Positions 4,301 through 12,140 of a stretch of DNA of 24,000 nt are shown one piece after another. Made by a program: the position numbers and the translations under genes. The DNA lies in contig NZ_JBPFDG010000003.1 in assembly GCF_051025635.1 (NCBI RefSeq), forward strand, positions 338,451 to 362,450, written 5' to 3'. Position 1 is the stretch's first letter. Each line of letters begins with the position of its first letter. This stretch comes from Williamsia sp. MIQD14. GTDB taxonomy: Bacteria > Actinomycetota > Actinomycetes > Mycobacteriales > Mycobacteriaceae. A model generated the notes under the pieces. It was not told the DNA's origin and ran no database searches. It saw only the letters and a program-made list of their open reading frames with translations.

Positions 4301-4576
4301 ATGACCGAACCCACCGCTGACCCCGGCGCAGACCGCGTGCACGACGAGCTCCGCGACATCCTCGCGAACGACCTCGATCTGTCCCCCGACCACGTCACCG
4401 GCTCGGCCCGCCTCGTCGACGACCTCGGTCTCGACTCGGTCGCCGTCGCGATCGGTGTCGTCGCCATCGAGGAACGCCTCGGCGTCGCCCTCACCGAACG
4501 CGAGATCTTCGAGAGCGCCTCGGTCGCCGACCTCGAGCAGGTCATCCGGTCGCGTCTGGCCGTGGTCGGCGGATGA
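4301..4576 (+). CDS. Stand-alone acyl/peptidyl carrier protein (MbtL-like)
   Basis: 91 aa. Phosphopantetheine attachment motif 'DDLGLDSVAVAIG' with Ser46 at 4436-4438. SD 'AAAGGAG' lies 7-13 nt upstream of ATG 4301. Only the last 91 codons of the 350-aa track ORF look coding. Confidence 0.85.
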   Translation: MTEPTADPGADRVHDELRDILANDLDLSPDHVTGSARLVDDLGLDSVAVAIGVVAIEERLGVALTEREIFESASVADLEQVIRSRLAVVGG

Positions 4577-5865
4577 CCGAGACGACCGAGGTCGCAGACG
4601 TCGCGACGGATGCCGCGGCCGGCCCGACCGAGTACGGCCCGCCGGATTTCACCTACCTGCACATGGACACCCCTGCGCGGCCGATGCACTGGTCGATGGT
4701 CCTCGAGATCGCCGGCGGTGACGCCCCGGTGGGCATCGACGAGATCCGCGATCGGGTGCGCTCGCGGGTCGCGCGCTACGACGTGTTCGGCGTGGGCGTG
4801 CGTGGCGGGCGGTGGCGTCGTCCCGACATCGTCGTGACGCCCGCCGACGCGATCGACATCGACCACCACGTCGTCGCCACCGAGGTGGCCGACGCCGCGG
4901 CCCGTGACCGGATGATCGCCGAGCTGTGCGCCACCCACCTACGACGTCCGGATCCGTTCTGGCACATCACCCTGATGACCGTCGCGGAGTCGGGTGAGCA
5001 GCTGCTGGTGCTGCGGGTGCACCACAGCCTGTCCGACGGCCTGGCCGGTGCGGCGTTCGCCGCGCTGCTCGCCGACGGGACGCCCGAGCAGCTCGCCGAG
5101 TTCGACCGGTTCGGCGCCGGTCCCCGCTTCCGCGTCGGCGACGTCGATCCCGACGTGCTCGCCGACGCCCGCGCCGCCCACGACGAGCAGTGGAAGGCCG
5201 GCCGGTCCGGTCGCGGCTGGCCCGCGCTCACCAGATCCGGCCGCCGCGAGATCGCGACGGTGTCGGTGTCGACCCGCGACCTCCGTCGTGCCGCGAAGCG
5301 CCACGAGGCCACGGTGCACGAGTTCGTGCTGGGTGCCGTCGGCCGAACCCTCAGCGCGCATCCGCCGACCGCGACCGGTCCCGAGAACATCCGGGTGACC
5401 CTGCCCGCCACCCTCGATCCCACGTTCCGCCACACCGGGAACGCCGTGTCGGTGACACTGCTCAACCTCGCGGGCGACGACACCGACCTCGACCGGCAGA
5501 TCGCCCGGAGCCGGGAGCAGTTGTCGCTCATCGAGACCCGGCGCGCGGCACTCGCACTCGCCGCCACCGGGCACCCGTCGCCGCCGTGGCCGGTGATGCG
5601 CGCCATCGTCGGGGCCTCGATGTCGCGGATGGCGCCCGACATCCACATCGGGGTGAATCCCGGGTTCTCCCGGGTGCGTTCGGTGCTGGGGCGTCGGATC
5701 GTCTCGCTCACGCCGCTGTCGCCGCTGGGCGGGTACTCGTTCTCGGTGACCTCGCTGGTCCTCGGCGACCGCACCACGTTCGGGATCGTCACCGACCCGC
5801 AGGCCCTCCCCGGCTACGCGGCGCGCTTCGCCGCCGCCTTCGACGAGCTCCTCACCGCCCCCTGA
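4573..5865 (+). CDS. WS/DGAT-family (wax ester synthase / diacylglycerol acyltransferase-like) acyltransferase
   Basis: 430 aa. N-terminal 'D..YLHMDTPARPMHWSMVLEI' resembles the WS/DGAT N-terminus ('D..FL..E....PMH'). Catalytic 'HHSLSDG' (HHxxxDG) is at 5020-5040. ATGA overlap with the carrier-protein stop. Confidence 0.75.
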   Translation: MTETTEVADVATDAAAGPTEYGPPDFTYLHMDTPARPMHWSMVLEIAGGDAPVGIDEIRDRVRSRVARYDVFGVGVRGGRWRRPDIVVTPADAIDIDHHVVATEVADAAARDRMIAELCATHLRRPDPFWHITLMTVAESGEQLLVLRVHHSLSDGLAGAAFAALLADGTPEQLAEFDRFGAGPRFRVGDVDPDVLADARAAHDEQWKAGRSGRGWPALTRSGRREIATVSVSTRDLRRAAKRHEATVHEFVLGAVGRTLSAHPPTATGPENIRVTLPATLDPTFRHTGNAVSVTLLNLAGDDTDLDRQIARSREQLSLIETRRAALALAATGHPSPPWPVMRAIVGASMSRMAPDIHIGVNPGFSRVRSVLGRRIVSLTPLSPLGGYSFSVTSLVLGDRTTFGIVTDPQALPGYAARFAAAFDELLTAP

Positions 5866-5886
5866 CCCGCCAGTTGGACACGTAAC

Positions 5887-5969
5887 GACCGCAGTCGGGC
5901 ACCGCTTTGTTCGGCCGCCCGCGATCTGAAAGCACAGATTACGAACGACCGACCGACCCGTAGAAGACC
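5887..5969 (+). repeat. Left copy of a degenerate direct repeat bounding the low-G+C insertion (tentative)
   Basis: Collinear short matches with 7592-7658: 'gaccgcag' (5887-5894 / 7592-7599), 'acgaac' (5941-5946 / 7622-7627), 'cgaccgaccc' (5950-5959 / 7639-7648), then 'tagaagacc' versus 'tagaccc'. The spacing between blocks differs. Confidence 0.25.
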
Positions 5970-6115
5970 GGCCTCGGAAGCCGCGCCTGCGCCTATTTAA
6001 TCGGCAGCGCCAACGGAGTGCGGCATCCAGTCGGAGGTGATATCCCGGGACTCACGACCCGCACGGTCGTCGCCACGGCGGCTGGCCAATTGCGGTGCGT
6101 CACGGAAGGCCCTGA

Positions 6116-6334
6116 GTGAGCGCGATTATCGATTCCAAAGGTCCGCTGTCGATCGATCTGGTGTCCCTGCTCGGCTTCGCCTTTCACGAAACGAGTGTCG
6201 GCGACATGCCGAGCATTCGGGACGAGATGTCGCAGGCCGTATCATTGAGCGTGCCGATTGCGGTCCAGTGGGCCATCATTCCCCCGAGTCGGGGGCTGTC
6301 CCTTGGAGGAGGAAAGTTGAATGTTTCTTCGTGA
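6116..6334 (+). CDS. Hypothetical small protein (72 aa), questionable
   Basis: GTG-initiated ORF directly after an in-frame TGA. Its third-codon positions are noticeably more G/C-rich than in the alternative frame 6037-6348 (hand inspection). It ends 14 nt inside the next ORF. No recognisable motif and no clear SD. Confidence 0.25.
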   Translation: MSAIIDSKGPLSIDLVSLLGFAFHETSVGDMPSIRDEMSQAVSLSVPIAVQWAIIPPSRGLSLGGGKLNVSS

Positions 6335-7313
6335 CTACCTATATGTAGATTTGGATAAAGTTCGGGCGTTGATATCGCAAATACTTGATGGAGTTCCCGA
6401 ACTGTCGACTCGCGTGGAAAGAAAAGAGAAAGACCGAGAGTTAAAAAATCGATACATTGGGGGCGTGTCGACGAAAAACGCAGATGAGCAATCGTACGAG
6501 AATAGTCTCTCGGACTCGTTGTTTCGAATCCTCGAAGAGGAACTGGAGCCGCTAGGGCTACTGGTAGATGTTTCACAAGAGCTCGCCGCGTCTAATGATT
6601 GGGGGGCACTTGAGGATACGATCTACCCGGGCGCCATCCTACGAATTTCGGCGCCAGCCACTCTTTTTCACCCGGGGCATCTTTCGAATGCGTTGGTTGG
6701 TATTGCGACGGCTGCGCACGGGTTGTCGACACTGGGAGACGTCGATGCGCCTCCTCCGGCTGGCCCTGGCGGGGGTAAGCGCAAAAATCAGCCTAGAAAC
6801 CGAGCGCTTCCTCAAAAGGTTGCGGGCGGCAACCCGGAAGATTTGTTGCCCTCTGAGGCCAAGATTCCTGTCCTTGACATACCTCGGGAAGAGCTTTCAG
6901 GAATGATTCAGCTTATTCGGGGTCTTTACGACAACGGTGTGCATCTCACAATGAAGCCGTGTGGCTCCGATGGCCCGGTGGTCTCGGCGCGCCTCGAAAG
7001 TGGAAGAAGGTTCCTTGATGCATCGCCTGAGATACTGTTCTCTCGCTACGGCTCAGGCGAACAGGTCTGGACCGCGGTCGGGCTGGTCGGACAGTTAGGC
7101 ATAACTGCCCCTGATGCCGATCCGCCGAGAGCTGTAGACGACGATGGAAACATAAGCCGTGCGTCCACAATGGGACTGATCGACTGGTTTCTCTCGATTG
7201 CGGGCACGTCAGGTCTGATTGACCAGCCTGTCAAGCCTAGCTTTTCATTCGTGCCACTTGCAGTCTATAGATCGATTGGACAGCCTGAGGTGCAGCCGAG
7301 TCTGCATGCGTAA
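6321..7313 (+). CDS. Hypothetical protein (330 aa), no assignable family; cargo of the low-G+C insertion
   Basis: Longest ORF in the islet. Strong SD 'GGAGGAGGA' (6305-6313) lies 7 nt before ATG 6321. The composition looks protein-like and is not Arg/Gly/Pro-skewed like the shadow ORFs. N-terminal 'MFLRDYLYVDLDKVRALISQILDG', central Gly/Pro/Lys/Arg-rich linker 'PPPAGPGGGKRKNQPRNRALPQK'. No TM segment, signal peptide or catalytic motif recognised. Confidence 0.75.
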   Translation: MFLRDYLYVDLDKVRALISQILDGVPELSTRVERKEKDRELKNRYIGGVSTKNADEQSYENSLSDSLFRILEEELEPLGLLVDVSQELAASNDWGALEDTIYPGAILRISAPATLFHPGHLSNALVGIATAAHGLSTLGDVDAPPPAGPGGGKRKNQPRNRALPQKVAGGNPEDLLPSEAKIPVLDIPREELSGMIQLIRGLYDNGVHLTMKPCGSDGPVVSARLESGRRFLDASPEILFSRYGSGEQVWTAVGLVGQLGITAPDADPPRAVDDDGNISRASTMGLIDWFLSIAGTSGLIDQPVKPSFSFVPLAVYRSIGQPEVQPSLHA

Positions 7314-7591
7314 TAAGAAGTTATGTGTATACGCGACTAGTAACGAAAGTCAGAGAGCGAAAGAATCTCAAACAAATTTCAAGGCGTCGGATTCGTACGC
7401 GCGGCAACTGGCAGTGTTAATTTTCGTGTGTCGCGCATATCCTAGGGTGGTGGGACCCTCGTCTTGACCCGCGCCTCGCGGTCCGCTCGAACTAGCTTTG
7501 AAGCTGTTCGGCGGCCCCCGCGACCAACGTCGAACCCAGCAGTACATCCGAATCGTGCCTGTGTCTTCTTTCCGCAAGTTTAAGCGGCAGT

Positions 7592-7658
7592 GACCGCAGA
7601 CTGCCATTTGCACTCGCAAGAACGAACTTCGAAAGTTTCGACCGACCCTTCTAGACCC
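7592..7658 (+). repeat. Right copy of a degenerate direct repeat bounding the low-G+C insertion (tentative)
   Basis: See the left copy (5887-5969). It also contains a small hairpin, ggcagt-gaccgcag-actgcc (7587-7606). Confidence 0.25.
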
Positions 7659-7759
7659 CTCTTCATGCCATGCTGAACAATTGCTGGCACTGTCACGTTC
7701 GTCAGAAGTCGCAGCGAGATCCAACCGGGCCGTCAGCACTTACCGCCCAAATGGGGCGT

Positions 7760-9139
7760 TTACGTGCCCAACTGGGGTAGCGGGAGCTCGATCACGTCCT
7801 CGCCCGGGCCGAAGGTGGTGAACGCCGTGTGGCCGGGGAGCCGGTAGACCTCACGGCCGGTGACCGCGTTGAGGATGCGCGCGTTGCGGACCGCGCCGAT
7901 GTCGAGGTTCGGCGAGGACACGCCGTGGCTGTGTTCCTCGGCGTTCGCGACGAACAGTCGACGGTCGAGGCCCTCGCGCATCGTGACGGAGTGGTCGTCG
8001 GCGATGACCGGTCGGCCCCGGGAGTCCCGGACCATCAGGGCGTCGAGCGGGTCGAGGAACGACGTGCTGCGCGGTCGGTATCCGGTGGCCGCGACGACGA
8101 GGTCGGCGGTGTGCGCGATCGTCGCGCCCGTGTCGTCGTGGCGCGCGTGGATGCGCAGGCGCCCGTCGGGCTGCTCGGCCAGACCCGTCACCGACACCCC
8201 GACACGCAACTGCACCGGCGGGAGCTTGCCGGCGAGCTGGCGGCGGTAGAGCAGATCGTGGAGGCGTTCGAGGGTGTCGGCGGAGATGCCCTTGTGGAAC
8301 TGCCAGTGGCCCGCGCGCACGGAGTCGCGGGTCTGCTCGGGCAGCGAGTGGAAGTAGTCCATGTACGCCGGTGTCGTCATCTCCAGCGACAGCTTCGTGA
8401 AGTCGAGCGGCGCGAACCACCCGGTGCGGGTCCACCACCGTACGGCGGGGCCGCCGGCGAGGTTGGCCTCGAGAAGATCGACGACGATCTCGGCGCCCGA
8501 CTGCCCCGACCCGATGACGGTCACCGCCTCGGCGGCGTGGGCGCGGGACCGGTGGCCGAGGTAGTCGCTGCTGTGGATCAACGACGGTGATCCGGTCGCG
8601 TCCCGCGCGGTCGCCCGTGCCGAGAGCGTCTGTGTCGAGAGCGTTCGGGGCAGATGCGGTTCGGTGCCGACGCCGCAGACCACGTGGGTCGCATGGATGA
8701 CCGACCTCTCGCCGTCGGAGGTGACGACGACACGGAACGAGTCGGTCTCGGCGTCGAAGTGGACCTCGGAGACCGAGGTGTCCCACCGCAGCGAGCCCAG
8801 TCGTTCGACGACCCACAGCAGGTAGGCCTCGTACTCGACGCGTGTGGGGAAGAAGTTCTCGCGCACCAGGAACGGGTAGAGGCGGTCGACGTCGGCGAGA
8901 TAGGCCAGGAACGACATCGGGTGGGTCGGGTCGACGAGCGAGACGAGGTCGGAGAGGAAGCTGACCTGCAGTGTCGCATCGTCGAACATCAACCCGGGAT
9001 GCCAGCGGAACTCCGGGCGTGCGTCGACGACGAGGAGGTCGAGGTCGTCCACGGTCGACGCCAGTGCGGCGAGGCCGAGGTTGAACGGGCCGCAGCCGAT
9101 CGCGAGAACGTCGACGCGACGGGGGGACTCAGTGCTCAC
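7760..9139 (-). CDS. Flavin-dependent lysine/diamine N-hydroxylase (IucD/DesB/AlcA family)
   Basis: FAD motif 'VLAIGCGPFNLGLAA', 'FRWHPGLMF', 'SFLSDLVSLVDPT.P.SFL.YL' (strongly IucD-like as recalled), NADPH motif 'VTVIGSGQSGAEI'. Start chosen at GTG 9139 ('[15 protein letters not shown]'), overlapping the upstream stop by 11 nt. The track ATG at 9235 would add a 32-aa Arg/His/Pro-rich overlap. Confidence 0.9.
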   Translation of the reverse strand: MSTESPRRVDVLAIGCGPFNLGLAALASTVDDLDLLVVDARPEFRWHPGLMFDDATLQVSFLSDLVSLVDPTHPMSFLAYLADVDRLYPFLVRENFFPTRVEYEAYLLWVVERLGSLRWDTSVSEVHFDAETDSFRVVVTSDGERSVIHATHVVCGVGTEPHLPRTLSTQTLSARATARDATGSPSLIHSSDYLGHRSRAHAAEAVTVIGSGQSGAEIVVDLLEANLAGGPAVRWWTRTGWFAPLDFTKLSLEMTTPAYMDYFHSLPEQTRDSVRAGHWQFHKGISADTLERLHDLLYRRQLAGKLPPVQLRVGVSVTGLAEQPDGRLRIHARHDDTGATIAHTADLVVAATGYRPRSTSFLDPLDALMVRDSRGRPVIADDHSVTMREGLDRRLFVANAEEHSHGVSSPNLDIGAVRNARILNAVTGREVYRLPGHTAFTTFGPGEDVIELPLPQLGT

Positions 9140-12100
9140 GGGATGCCTCCAGCGCGTCGGTGGACGGTGAATGGATGGACGGGCCGTCGGCCGAGAGTGC
9201 GCGTGCGTTCTCGGATTCGACCTCGAGTGCCACACGGATGATGTCGTCGAACAGGGCGTCGATGTCGGTCTCGTGGGTCTCGGGGTTGAGCAGGGTCAGC
9301 TTCAGGCAGACCTGCGGGTGGTCGGCGTCGGCGGTCACCACCCGGGTGCGGCCGATGAGGGCCGCCCCGGACCGGATGAGGCGGCGTCGGAGTTCGGCGT
9401 TCACCGCGTCGAGATCGGCGCAGCGGTAGCGGAACACGACCGTGGTGAGGGTCACCGGGGCGATCAGCTCGAGATGCGGTTCGGTAGCGATCCGCTGCTC
9501 GGCGTGCCGTGCGAGATCGTGGCACCGATCGAGCATCGCCCCGAGCCCCAGCCTGCCGTAGGCGAGGAACGTGGCGGCCACCTTGAGGACGTCGGGACGC
9601 CGCGTGGTCTGCAGGGTCTGCCCCAGCAGACCGCCGTATCCCGCCTCGATGTCGTCGGTGGGGTTGAGATACGACACCGACCGGTCGACGGCGGCGAACC
9701 GTCCGGAGTCGGCGAGCAGCAACACACTCGCCGCGGCCGGCTGCCACCCGATCTTGTGGAGATCCAACGTGATCGAGTCGGCACGATCGACCCCGTCGAG
9801 GAGACCGGCGAGTCGATCGGAGAACAACGACCCGAAACCGTAGGCGGCGTCGACGTGCAGCCACACACCGTGCCGACGGGCGATGGCGGAGATCTCGCGC
9901 AGCGGATCGACGGTGCCGAAATCGGTGGTGCCCGCGGTGGCGACGATGGCCACCGGCGTCCGATCCCCGGCGGCGGCGAGCGCGGCCTCGAGCGCCGCGG
10001 GGACCATGCGGTGGTCGTCGTCGACGTCGATGCCGACCACCGCCGATTCGCCGAGACCGAGTGCGGCGCAGGCGCGATGCAGCGAGAAGTGCGCGATCCG
10101 CGAGCAGAACACGACCGGACGGGGGAGTGCTCCGGTGCCGTCGGCGCGGGTGTCGAGGCCGATGGCCGCGGCGGCGTGGTCGCGAGCGATCAACAGGGCC
10201 AGGAGGTTCGAGTACGAGCCACCCGGCCCGAACACGCCGCCCGCATCGGCGCCGAGGCCGGCGAGATCGGCCAGCGCCGCGATCATCCACTGCTCGATGG
10301 CCAGCGTCGCGGGCCCCGAATCGTAGGTGTCGAGGGAGGCGTTGGTGGCCCCGGCGAGGGCGTCGGCGACGACCGCGACCGTCAGGGGTGGGGGTTGCAG
10401 GTGCGCGGCGGTACGTGTGTGGGTGAGGTCGAGACCGTGTCGTGCGACGAGGTCGCCGAGACGGGCCAGTGCCTGCGATTCGCCGATGCCGGCCGAGGGG
10501 ATGACCCGCGGGCCGAGGCGGGAACCGACCTCGTCGAGGACGTCACCGGGGAGTCCGTGCGGCAGGGGTGCGCCGTGGTGGGACGTGGCGGAGACCGATT
10601 CGGCCATGCGGATGAGATCCTCGCCGACCTGTGCCCACCCCCGACCGGGGGAGGTGAAACGAGAACGGCGTGCGGGCAACTCGGGGAAGGCGCACGCCGC
10701 ACGCACCGCGTCGACGAGGTCGGCGACGGTGGAGTCGAGGTCGGCGGGCAGTTCACGGAGCAGACCCATCGCTACGCCCGGCGCACGCTGCGTCACCTCC
10801 GCGTCGGGGGTGTCGGTGCGACGGTCGATCTCGAGTTGGATCCCGTCGTCGGTGATCTCGAAGGCATAGCTCAGCGTGTAGCCGCCGACGCCTGTCGAGA
10901 CCGATCGGTAGGCGACGCCGCCTCCGGCTGCGACACCCCGTACCGGTGCGCTGCGCACCGAGGCCATCACGTCGGCGACGGGGAACCGCCCGCCGTGGGT
11001 GCGCAGGGCGGTCAGCAGGGTGCCGTAGTCGACCGACGCGAACTCCATCGCCGAGTAGACGGCGGACATCATGCGGTGCAACGTCTCCCGGACCGATGCC
11101 GTCGGGTCGACGGTGAACCGGATCGGCACGATGTTGCCGCAGTACCCGACCGCACGCGGGTCCTCGTCGGCCCGCCGGTTCTCGCTCGGGACGAGCATCA
11201 CGAAGTCGTCGGCGCCGCTGAGCGAGTGTGCGGCCAGCGCGCACACCCCGATCATCAGTGCGTTCGATGTCGCGCCGATGTCGCGGGCGACGTCGGCCAG
11301 GGCGGTGACCACCGCGGGGTCGACGGCGCGGCGGTCCCGCGACACCGCGCCCTCGTCGAGGGGGGTGATCCAGCTCTGTTCGGCCGACTCCGTCGGCCGG
11401 GCCCCGGTCAGCGGGTGCCGGATGTCGTCGGCGGCCCAGGTCGACAGGGCATGGCGCAGTGCGTCGTCGACCGGTGCTGCAGATCCATCCGGCCCGGCAC
11501 CGCCTGTCTCGGTCCCGCCGGTCTCGACACCGGTGACCGTGCTCGCGCCGGCGACGAGGGGGCCCAGCACTACCGGCCACGAGGTGCCGTCGACGGCGAT
11601 GTGGTGGATGACGAGGATCAGCGTGCACGTGCCGTCGGGGAGCACGGTCAGGCGTGCGCGGGCCGGTGCCTCGTCGGCCAGATTGAACGGCCGTCGGGTG
11701 AGCGACTCCGCGGCGTCGTCGACGTCGTCGATTCGTGCTTCGCCCTCCGCCGACGCGGGCCACTCCCAGACGGTGTCGGGTGCCGACCAGCCGGCCTCGA
11801 CGTCGACGCGCCGCCGTCGCACGACACCCTCGTCGTCGACGATGACCGACGACAGGACCGGGCTGCGCAGCGTCTCCTCGAGGGCGGCGACCACACTCTG
11901 CGCCGGCCGACCGTCGATGAACGTGAGCACGAGACCGATGTTGTGCGAGATCGACGCGGGATCGAGCTGGTGGATACGCCACATCCGACATTCGGCGACG
12001 CCGAGCTCACCGTCCGGTCGGGGCGTCGAATCCGTTGCGGCGTCGGGAGTCGAGGCCGTGTCGGCGGCGACCGCGCCGGTGTCGACACCGGCGAGGCGTC

Positions 12101-12140
12101 GTCGCATCAGCTCGAGCCGTGATTCGTCCAGTACGCTCAC
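9129..12140 (-). CDS. Fusion protein: NRPS-type condensation domain (N-terminal) + PLP-dependent group II amino-acid decarboxylase (C-terminal)
   Basis: C domain spans about aa 45-480 (nt 10701-12008), with C1-like '[13 protein letters not shown]' and C3 '[12 protein letters not shown]' (HHxxxDG at 11586-11606). The decarboxylase spans about aa 500-975 (nt 9216-10643), with 'GGSYSNL', '[13 protein letters not shown]', 'HVDAAYG' and the PLP-lysine motif '[13 protein letters not shown]' (Lys796 at 9753-9755). No carrier or adenylation domain. GTG start in a GTGA overlap with the upstream stop. Confidence 0.9.

Follow-up and report, generated by a model that had tools for sequence, protein, structure and literature searches.

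A stand-alone DolA-like gene, a candidate defence gene, in a strain-specific cassette at the centre of a host palindrome between Williamsia siderophore operons

How does a gene of low guanine-plus-cytosine (G+C) content come to lie between two convergent siderophore operons of a high-G+C actinobacterium, and what might it do there? The question arises in Williamsia sp. MIQD14, in a stretch of 24,000 nucleotides (nt; the window) in which an initial annotation, made from the letters alone, had marked a foreign segment with one gene for a 330-residue protein between a WS/DGAT-type acyltransferase gene and an N-hydroxylase gene. Alignment with insert-free relatives identifies the core of this segment, positions 5903-7744 (plus strand), as a strain-specific and evidently horizontally acquired cassette in the middle of an array of ~21-nt units that forms a palindrome. 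Its sole recognisable cargo is an intact, full-length gene of the DUF6414 family; the cassette carries no DolB partner gene, no recombinase and no recognisable ends of its own. On balance, we favour the reading that a recombinase-free, horizontally acquired cassette has brought this strain a stand-alone DolA-like candidate defence gene.

Base composition sets the segment apart. Outside the gap between the two flanking genes, G+C averages 0.709 (standard deviation 0.024, minimum 0.63, n = 215 windows over the 24 kb) versus 0.56 in the insert, which bears out the drop first reported there; internal windows fall to 0.49, about 9 standard deviations under the outside mean. In 300-nt windows, both flanks range from 0.69 to 0.75 and positions 6001-7800 only from 0.46 to 0.64. 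G+C at third codon positions (GC3) is 0.54 in the open reading frame (ORF) of the 330-residue protein versus 0.92 in each flanking gene.

The precise borders of the cassette were obtained from two comparison loci, one in Williamsia sp. M5A3_1d (L057) and one on a metagenome scaffold (L058). Both have the gene order of the window and flanking genes 87 to 90% identical to it at the DNA level, and both lack the DUF6414 gene, as expected of the strain-specific insertion that had been proposed. The spacer from the stop codon of the WS/DGAT gene to that of the N-hydroxylase gene measures 36 bp in L057, 171 bp in L058 and 1,894 bp in the window. In L058, the spacer is an array of 21-nt units containing CCAGTTGGGCACGTAA, 3.8 of them forward and 4.5 inverted, that folds into a single long hairpin (-83 kcal/mol, z = -12.7), its innermost inverted unit supplying the last codons of the N-hydroxylase (QLGT*). 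Two forward units (CCAGTTGGACACGTAACGACCG, CAGTCGGGCAC) make up the left half of this host palindrome in the window (5866-5902; motif matches at 5871 and 5892) and two inverted units (GCCCAAATGGGGCGTTTACGT, GCCCAACTGG) the right half (7745-7775; motif match at 7764-7774), the final one encoding the same QLGT* end. The forward (5870-5902) and inverted (7745-7775) units together form a 31-nt inverted repeat (I1) at the insert edges, and joining the two halves in silico restores a hairpin (z = -5). Because homology to L058 stops at 5902 and restarts at 7745, the foreign segment is, on this alignment, 5903-7744 (1,842 bp), exactly at the palindrome centre. The range originally given, 5866-7759, does lie in the gap, and its outer 37 and 15 nt are host palindrome units. 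With empty-site relatives that fix the insertion to the base, the locus is a clean natural before-and-after example.

The number of 21-nt units itself varies by strain, from 3.8 + 4.5 in L058 to 2 + 2 in the window and about 0 + 1 in L057. The unit array was located at L058:7306-7500 and L057:7303-7338, and also at L059:3910-4040. In the insert-free relatives, the array is probably the bidirectional terminator of the two convergent genes; it might also act as a binding site for a protein or as a hot spot of recombination. Within the sequences compared, the unit is confined to this junction. We considered whether it is a dispersed element of the repetitive extragenic palindromic (REP) kind and set this idea aside: an exact 16-mer scan of metagenome contigs was uninformative, returning single, chance-level matches and no multi-copy contigs.

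By its position, the gene could be a functional component of the siderophore cluster, such as a tailoring, export or regulatory accessory: it lies between both operons and on the strand of the upstream WS/DGAT operon. The initial annotation had reasoned that a cluster component would be found at the same place in all related siderophore clusters. The gene is missing from the two closest syntenic ones, and unrelated genes occupy the junction in a third, more distant Williamsia (SKLECPSW1, L060; 68% orthologue). Its GC3 differs sharply from that of its neighbours, its homologues occur in such unrelated contexts as a ribosomal protein operon, the vicinity of a nuo operon and restriction-modification islands, and siderophore genes are present in none of the annotated homologue neighbourhoods. 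On this comparative evidence, the explanation is effectively refuted, and we give it almost no weight.

The cargo of L060 (7305-9387) consists of a gene for a SnoaL/LEH-like protein of 149 residues and one for a DUF222 protein of 471 residues. At its 3' end, the DUF222 gene overlaps the N-hydroxylase stop codon by ~40 nt, and the 21-nt units are absent from that locus. Since L060 carries other cargo at it, the WS/DGAT-N-hydroxylase junction is, from these alignments, a recurrent landing place.

The gene itself occupies 6321-7313 on the plus strand, starts with ATG and is intact. The ORF, the peptide segments quoted from it and its strong Shine-Dalgarno sequence (GGAGGAGG, plus strand, 6305-6312, 8 nt 5' of the ATG, read from the sequence) all agree with the first description. 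Its portrayal as an orphan without a family does not hold: the protein matches Pfam DUF6414 (PF19952) with 42.6 bits (E 8.5e-11), above the gathering threshold of 25 bits, an identical protein at NCBI is named 'DUF6414 family protein [Williamsia sp. MIQD14]', and clade mates match the family end to end. In a single-sequence scan, the window protein alone aligns to profile positions 1-149, the N-terminal half, because an inserted linker breaks the local alignment. The clade mates P0029 and P0053 span positions 1-283 of the 283 in the profile, and alignment of the clade profile with a canonical DUF6414 member of 304 residues (P0191) by hhalign gave a probability of 99.9 over 276 columns, with a sole gap at the Gly/Pro/Lys/Arg-rich linker, residues 143-171. 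Because clade mates cover the whole profile and the hhalign gap falls only at the linker, the window protein is, to judge from these profiles, a full-length DUF6414 protein with a clade-specific, disordered basic insertion. This linker (6747-6833, plus strand) has low values of the predicted local distance difference test (pLDDT) across residues 141-170 and characterises the actinobacterial clade.

All 53 word-indexed homologues are ~330 residues long and align over 97% of the length of the window protein, the next-best being 56% identical, and those that are named all come from Actinobacteria (Rhodococcus, Leucobacter, Agromyces, Mycobacterium, Nocardiopsis, Arthrobacter, Kocuria, Streptomyces and Amycolatopsis). 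A 34-sequence clade alignment has 35 invariant columns, all of which the window protein keeps. An exhaustive profile search, with family size counted as clusters at 50% identity, collected 650 clusters at E <= 1e-3, 102 of them at E <= 1e-30. Separately, the N-terminal ~60 residues (3-62; window 6321-6500) gave a weak match (E 3e-5) to phrog_9699, a PHROG family of unknown function, so the conserved LREYLYVDxDRVR strand-helix motif may also occur in some phage proteins.

Why might such a gene serve in defence? An anti-phage system named Dodola and composed of DolA and DolB was reportedly described by Millman et al. in 2022. In this two-gene system, DolB is ClpB-like, and DolA is a DUF6414 protein according to one review preprint. 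Activity was reportedly first shown against phage SPP1. Dodola confers phage resistance, by a mechanism still listed as unknown in 2026. The Pfam match makes the window protein DolA-like by family, with the equivalence of DolA and DUF6414 taken from the literature. The insert holds one gene, and no adjacent DolB was found in a search confined to locus neighbourhoods. Nor did an AAA+/ClpB-like partner appear among the annotated neighbours of ~65 related loci; the sole Clp-related neighbour is a 159-residue Clp_N protein at one locus, 3.3 kb away on the opposite strand. All-against-all clustering of neighbouring ORFs in ~50 loci, and comparison of the ORFs immediately downstream, found no conserved partner gene of any kind. 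A hidden partner was thereby discarded, the single Clp_N protein being small, distant and on the opposite strand. With no DolB, no match in PADLOC and a DolA equivalence that is literature-based, we file the window protein, on its sequence, as 'DolA-like, stand-alone' and not as a Dodola system.

Two Streptomyces loci present a different arrangement (L017:8107-9927 and L021:8077-9891), with a low-G+C pentapeptide-repeat gene of ~605 codons directly upstream of the DUF6414 gene and co-oriented with it. The encoded protein could be a lineage-specific partner.

The genomic surroundings of the homologues speak to both mobility and function. Homologue G+C lies below that of the host in all 50 genomic loci checked (L001-L052), by 3 to 25 points, which marks DUF6414 homologues as persistently mobile or unameliorated cargo. 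The closest homologue directly adjoins genes for GmrSD and a ScoMcrA-like HNH enzyme. A Leucobacter homologue has HTH_17 and Phage_integrase genes (excisionase and integrase) 0.8 kb upstream and Abi_2 downstream. Neighbours of other homologues include an MmeI-type IIG enzyme, a NACHT ATPase and PIN_8 proteins, distant members adjoin a Type I restriction-modification system, SLATT_5 and a PLD-SNF2 helicase, and a DISARM-like cluster lies near one homologue. The 99 pooled low-G+C companions comprise, among others, integrases, a resolvase, a DDE transposase, Mrr and a reverse transcriptase. Other homologues are solitary amid housekeeping genes, for instance beside the nuo operon. As a whole, these surroundings hint at a role in defence or as an accessory.

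Many of the immediate low-G+C neighbours are mutually unrelated and mostly have no Pfam match, such as ORFs of 777 residues (L005), 334 (L015), 261 (L023), 231 (L044) and 238 (L063). They are a pool of uncharacterised island genes. In Rhodococcus sp. 06-235-1A (L056:7562-12835), a 51%-identical homologue sits inside the ribosomal protein operon, between the S14 and S8 genes, accompanied by an unannotated 262-residue gene and a WXG100/WXG100_2-'Cytotoxic' toxin cassette with a DUF7683 gene.

The same surroundings can be read in another way. The gene could be a mobile-DNA accessory with a role other than defence; it might encode, for example, a nucleoid-associated protein, a factor in anti-defence or in competition between elements, or a toxin or addiction module. 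Its defence-island neighbours would then reflect nothing beyond shared integration hot spots. The WXG100 polymorphic-toxin cassette beside the Rhodococcus copy, the many loci with no defence neighbour, the weak N-terminal likeness to a phage family and the empty PADLOC result for every family member tested would all fit such a role. In contrast, published work connects the family with a validated defence system; its members, including the closest homologue, repeatedly adjoin restriction, Abi, DISARM-like or PIN genes; and neither a conserved antitoxin-like partner nor phage-genome homologues were found. We consider a non-defence role rather unlikely. For the gene as a stand-alone accessory immunity gene of the anti-phage or abortive-infection type, a guess already ventured in the initial annotation, the balance is about even in our estimation. 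It gains circumstantial support because DUF6414 is linked to DolA and because the homologues have defence-gene neighbours.

A first AlphaFold model of the protein, built on 34 sequences, reached a pLDDT of 79.7; a better one, built on a 145-sequence alignment, reached 89.1 with a predicted template modelling (TM) score of 0.82. In the better model, a beta strand (residues 3-9) is followed by a helix (11-22), a long beta hairpin (28-62), helices (67-97), a strand (106-116), a helix (118-142), the disordered linker (143-171) and an alpha/beta C-terminal half, which ends in the most conserved strand (308-319, PGFSxVPLAVYR). The N-terminus is accordingly not simply helical, as had been described. 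The first and last beta strands are among the most conserved elements. Residues 28-62 (window 6402-6506) fold as helices with the 34-sequence alignment and as a long beta hairpin with the 145-sequence alignment, a disagreement that may reflect model uncertainty or a real conformational switch.

A Foldseek search with the model, which had been recommended for placing the protein, returned no structural neighbour from PDB or BFVD (best E 0.28, TM ~0.1), and sequence-profile searches of PDB chains with the 34- and 145-sequence profiles gave nothing below E 0.1. An OB-fold, hinted at by weak Foldseek matches of the 34-sequence model to AspRS/LysRS, SSB, MCM and RecJ, was dropped when the 145-sequence model did not reproduce it. 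No segment of the protein is hydrophobic, the highest Kyte-Doolittle mean over 19 residues being 1.16, and the residues that are near-invariant family-wide include three acidic ones (D10, D65, E72) and three basic ones (R108, R280, R317). Because of these two features, we picture a soluble protein with a charged site. There are weak indications that this could be a ligand-binding or catalytic site, joined in the actinobacterial clade by a basic tail suited to nucleic-acid contact. Extended further, the models would allow a soluble cytoplasmic alpha/beta protein of unsolved fold whose ligand during infection would be a nucleic acid or a nucleotide and which would work alone, a proposal that we hold to be improbable as it stands.

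How the DNA arrived is a separate matter. No recombinase, tRNA, Rfam RNA or terminator-like site was found in 5600-8000, which accords with the single-gene, recombinase-free cargo noted at the outset, and a tRNA scan of the whole window was also empty. The 31-nt inverted repeat invites a transposon reading, with the repeats as terminal inverted repeats. We rejected that reading: the repeat is host sequence, present in the insert-free relatives, which means that it does not mark the end of a transposon. Beyond short direct repeats at chance level, the locus showed no target-site duplication. The cassette has neither the recombinase ORF nor the tRNA nor the significant att-like direct repeats of an integrative element. 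An origin from a plasmid or phage was likewise abandoned, as the cassette DNA has no plasmid or phage match and a tblastn search of the phage genomes in the GenBank set found no match to the DUF6414 protein.

Two arms flank the gene, one of 418 nt on the 5' side (5903-6320, G+C 0.62) and one of 431 nt on the 3' side (7314-7744, G+C 0.54), neither with a recognisable feature. The 3' arm corresponds to the non-coding low-G+C DNA downstream of the gene in the initial annotation and covers ~430 nt. Comparison of the arms with all related DUF6414 loci by blastn, ORF tblastn and six-frame tblastn produced scattered compositional noise alone; there is no conserved small ORF and no likeness to the flanks of the other loci. 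Gene remnants in the arms were discounted on these results and on the empty Rfam, tRNA and terminator scans.

The arms nevertheless bear on a rival account of arrival, in which the cassette is the decayed stump of a larger mobile element, for example an islet like that of Leucobacter (integrase, excisionase, DUF6414, Abi_2). Its recombinase and other genes would have eroded to leave the cargo gene and two non-coding arms of ~420 nt. This account is compatible with a defence role and differs solely in how the DNA came in. The arms are long for plain untranslated regions and have no assigned function, a phage-type integrase gene lies close upstream of the Leucobacter homologue and an integrase fragment near a Glycomyces relative, and the low-G+C companions include integrases, a resolvase and a DDE transposase. 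Against it, the six-frame comparison retrieved noise alone, att-like direct repeats are at chance level, no tRNA target exists, and the insert lies exactly at the palindrome centre and not beside the palindrome. We regard a decayed stump as a minority possibility.

That the palindrome's hairpin or cruciform broke at its apex and took up the DNA by illegitimate end-joining, with no site-specific recombinase, seems to us a real prospect, though one somewhat short of even. From the present state of the locus, we infer either such a capture or an element decayed beyond recognition. Foreign DNA at a palindrome centre with no recombinase bears on how small defence islets reach unmarked hot spots. 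Palindrome-flanked insertion was not seen at 11 of the 12 other loci in which DUF6414 is the sole low-G+C gene. Because only one of the 12 is comparable, palindrome targeting is not a trait of the DUF6414 family. That exception is Streptomyces sp. NPDC012888 (L041), where a 35-nt self-complementary, terminator-like hairpin (AAGGCCCCCAACCG...CGGTTGGGGGCCTT) occurs in two copies, at 9584-9618 and 12088-12122, that bracket a 2.5-kb segment holding the DUF6414 homologue; L041 is a possible further example of hairpin insertion.

Is the gene expressed? The 5' arm presumably holds its promoter. Alternatively, the gene could be silent or non-functional in this host, through Lsr2-type xenogeneic silencing or a missing promoter. 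AT-rich DNA is the target of actinobacterial Lsr2, the insert is strongly AT-biased relative to the genome, and no sigma-70-like promoter was detected on the plus strand 5' of the ATG, in a consensus scan that excludes actinobacterial promoter types. Set against silence are this restricted coverage of the scan, the intact ORF with all 35 clade-invariant residues and a strong Shine-Dalgarno sequence, and the possibility that, with the palindrome split, transcription reads through from the upstream operon. We therefore judge silence to be quite improbable. The insertion separates the halves of a likely bidirectional terminator of both operons. Read-through from the siderophore operon is plausible because the gene is co-oriented with the WS/DGAT operon and the gap contains no terminator-like site; antisense transcription from the N-hydroxylase operon is plausible as well.

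The favoured reading, a recombinase-free cassette with a stand-alone DolA-like candidate defence gene, can be put as a sequence of proposed steps. The candidate immunity gene would travel among high-G+C Actinobacteria as AT-rich cargo and land in variable regions and defence islands; the protein would bind a nucleic acid or nucleotide ligand during infection and act on its own; and the ClpB-like ATPase of canonical Dodola would be an accessory that this clade dispenses with. Several observations weigh against it. PADLOC-DB v2.0.0, whose models should include DolA, returned zero families at E <= 10 for the window protein and 33 clade mates, and zero at E <= 1e-3 for 10 more distant DUF6414 members. 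The defence role of solo DUF6414 proteins is one that we infer, the equivalence of DolA and DUF6414 comes from a single review preprint, and the tally of defence neighbours is raw, with no background rate and a part of the neighbours annotated. No homologues were found on known plasmids or phages, and the window copy sits in a siderophore cluster, not in a defence island. The biochemical step has no fold or motif behind it, given the Foldseek and PDB-profile results. As to arrival, flanking palindromes are not general among the other solo loci, so that hairpin capture may be a one-off, and the arms of 418 and 431 nt might just as well be what is left of a larger, decayed element.

The flanking genes conform to the siderophore-operon context already described. 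On the left, the WS/DGAT-type acyltransferase gene (4573-5865, plus strand; PF03007, E 3.9e-10) is the final gene of the plus-strand siderophore operon; its product is 100% identical to a Williamsia sp. MIQD14 protein and has orthologues of 89% protein identity in two relatives. On the right, the gene for a lysine/ornithine N-monooxygenase, the N-hydroxylase (7760-9235, minus strand; PF13434, E 1.7e-97), is the final gene of the minus-strand operon. Its true start probably lies downstream of the longest-ORF start, since the orthologues are 444 to 448 residues long. The rest of the window is siderophore cluster, including a chorismate-binding enzyme, an ABC-2 exporter, a decarboxylase-condensation fusion, a penicillin-amidase-like protein, IucA/IucC and a nonribosomal peptide synthetase module with a GNAT domain. 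In Williamsia sp. M5A3_1d (L057:10232-11685), the decarboxylase is called at 520 residues and is followed by ~1.4 kb with no called gene, whereas the window and L058 have a condensation-decarboxylase fusion (1003 and 987 residues). The shorter L057 decarboxylase may represent a frameshift, a pseudogene or an annotation gap in that strain.

In its strongest form, the argument would make solo DUF6414 an autonomous single-gene anti-phage system of unsolved fold, with DolA and not the ClpB-like ATPase at the functional heart of Dodola, and this copy captured at a hairpin apex with no recombinase. We advance this only tentatively and think it unlikely in all its parts. If it were true, a solo DUF6414 system would be widespread in Actinobacteria and missed by current defence-finder models, and loss of the terminator may couple expression of the gene to the siderophore operon, which is induced by iron starvation. 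The clade is AT-rich cargo in high-G+C hosts, often beside restriction or Abi genes, and PADLOC misses those members that were tested; as a DolA-like clade with no ClpB-like partner, it gives a simpler, one-gene entry to the Dodola mechanism. For natural-product work, the DUF6414 gene is not part of the siderophore pathway, and the insertion splits a likely bidirectional terminator.

Three kinds of known system resemble this locus in part. Like mobile insertion cassettes and hot-spot defence islets, it has a single accessory gene with non-coding arms between conserved convergent genes, cargo that differs by strain at the same junction, and no recombinase. It departs from transposase-less mobile insertion cassettes in that the inverted repeats at its edges belong to the host palindrome and not to the cassette. 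REP-targeting insertion sequence elements, such as IS1397 and those of the IS110/IS621 family, are known to insert into palindromic or REP-like hairpins. The insertion point here resembles their targets, being the centre of a strong hairpin-forming repeat with convergent genes on either side; unlike them, the cassette carries no transposase or bridge-RNA-type element. With Dodola, the differences are that a ClpB-like DolB adjoins neither this gene nor its relatives in ~65 loci, and that the actinobacterial clade has the extra basic disordered linker. As a point in common, the window protein is a member of Pfam DUF6414, as DolA is reported to be, and Dodola loci and the homologues of the window protein both occur stand-alone or in defence islands. 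What we describe is thus not a new kind of system; it is the partner-less form of a known, mechanistically unsolved family, in an unusually clean insertion.

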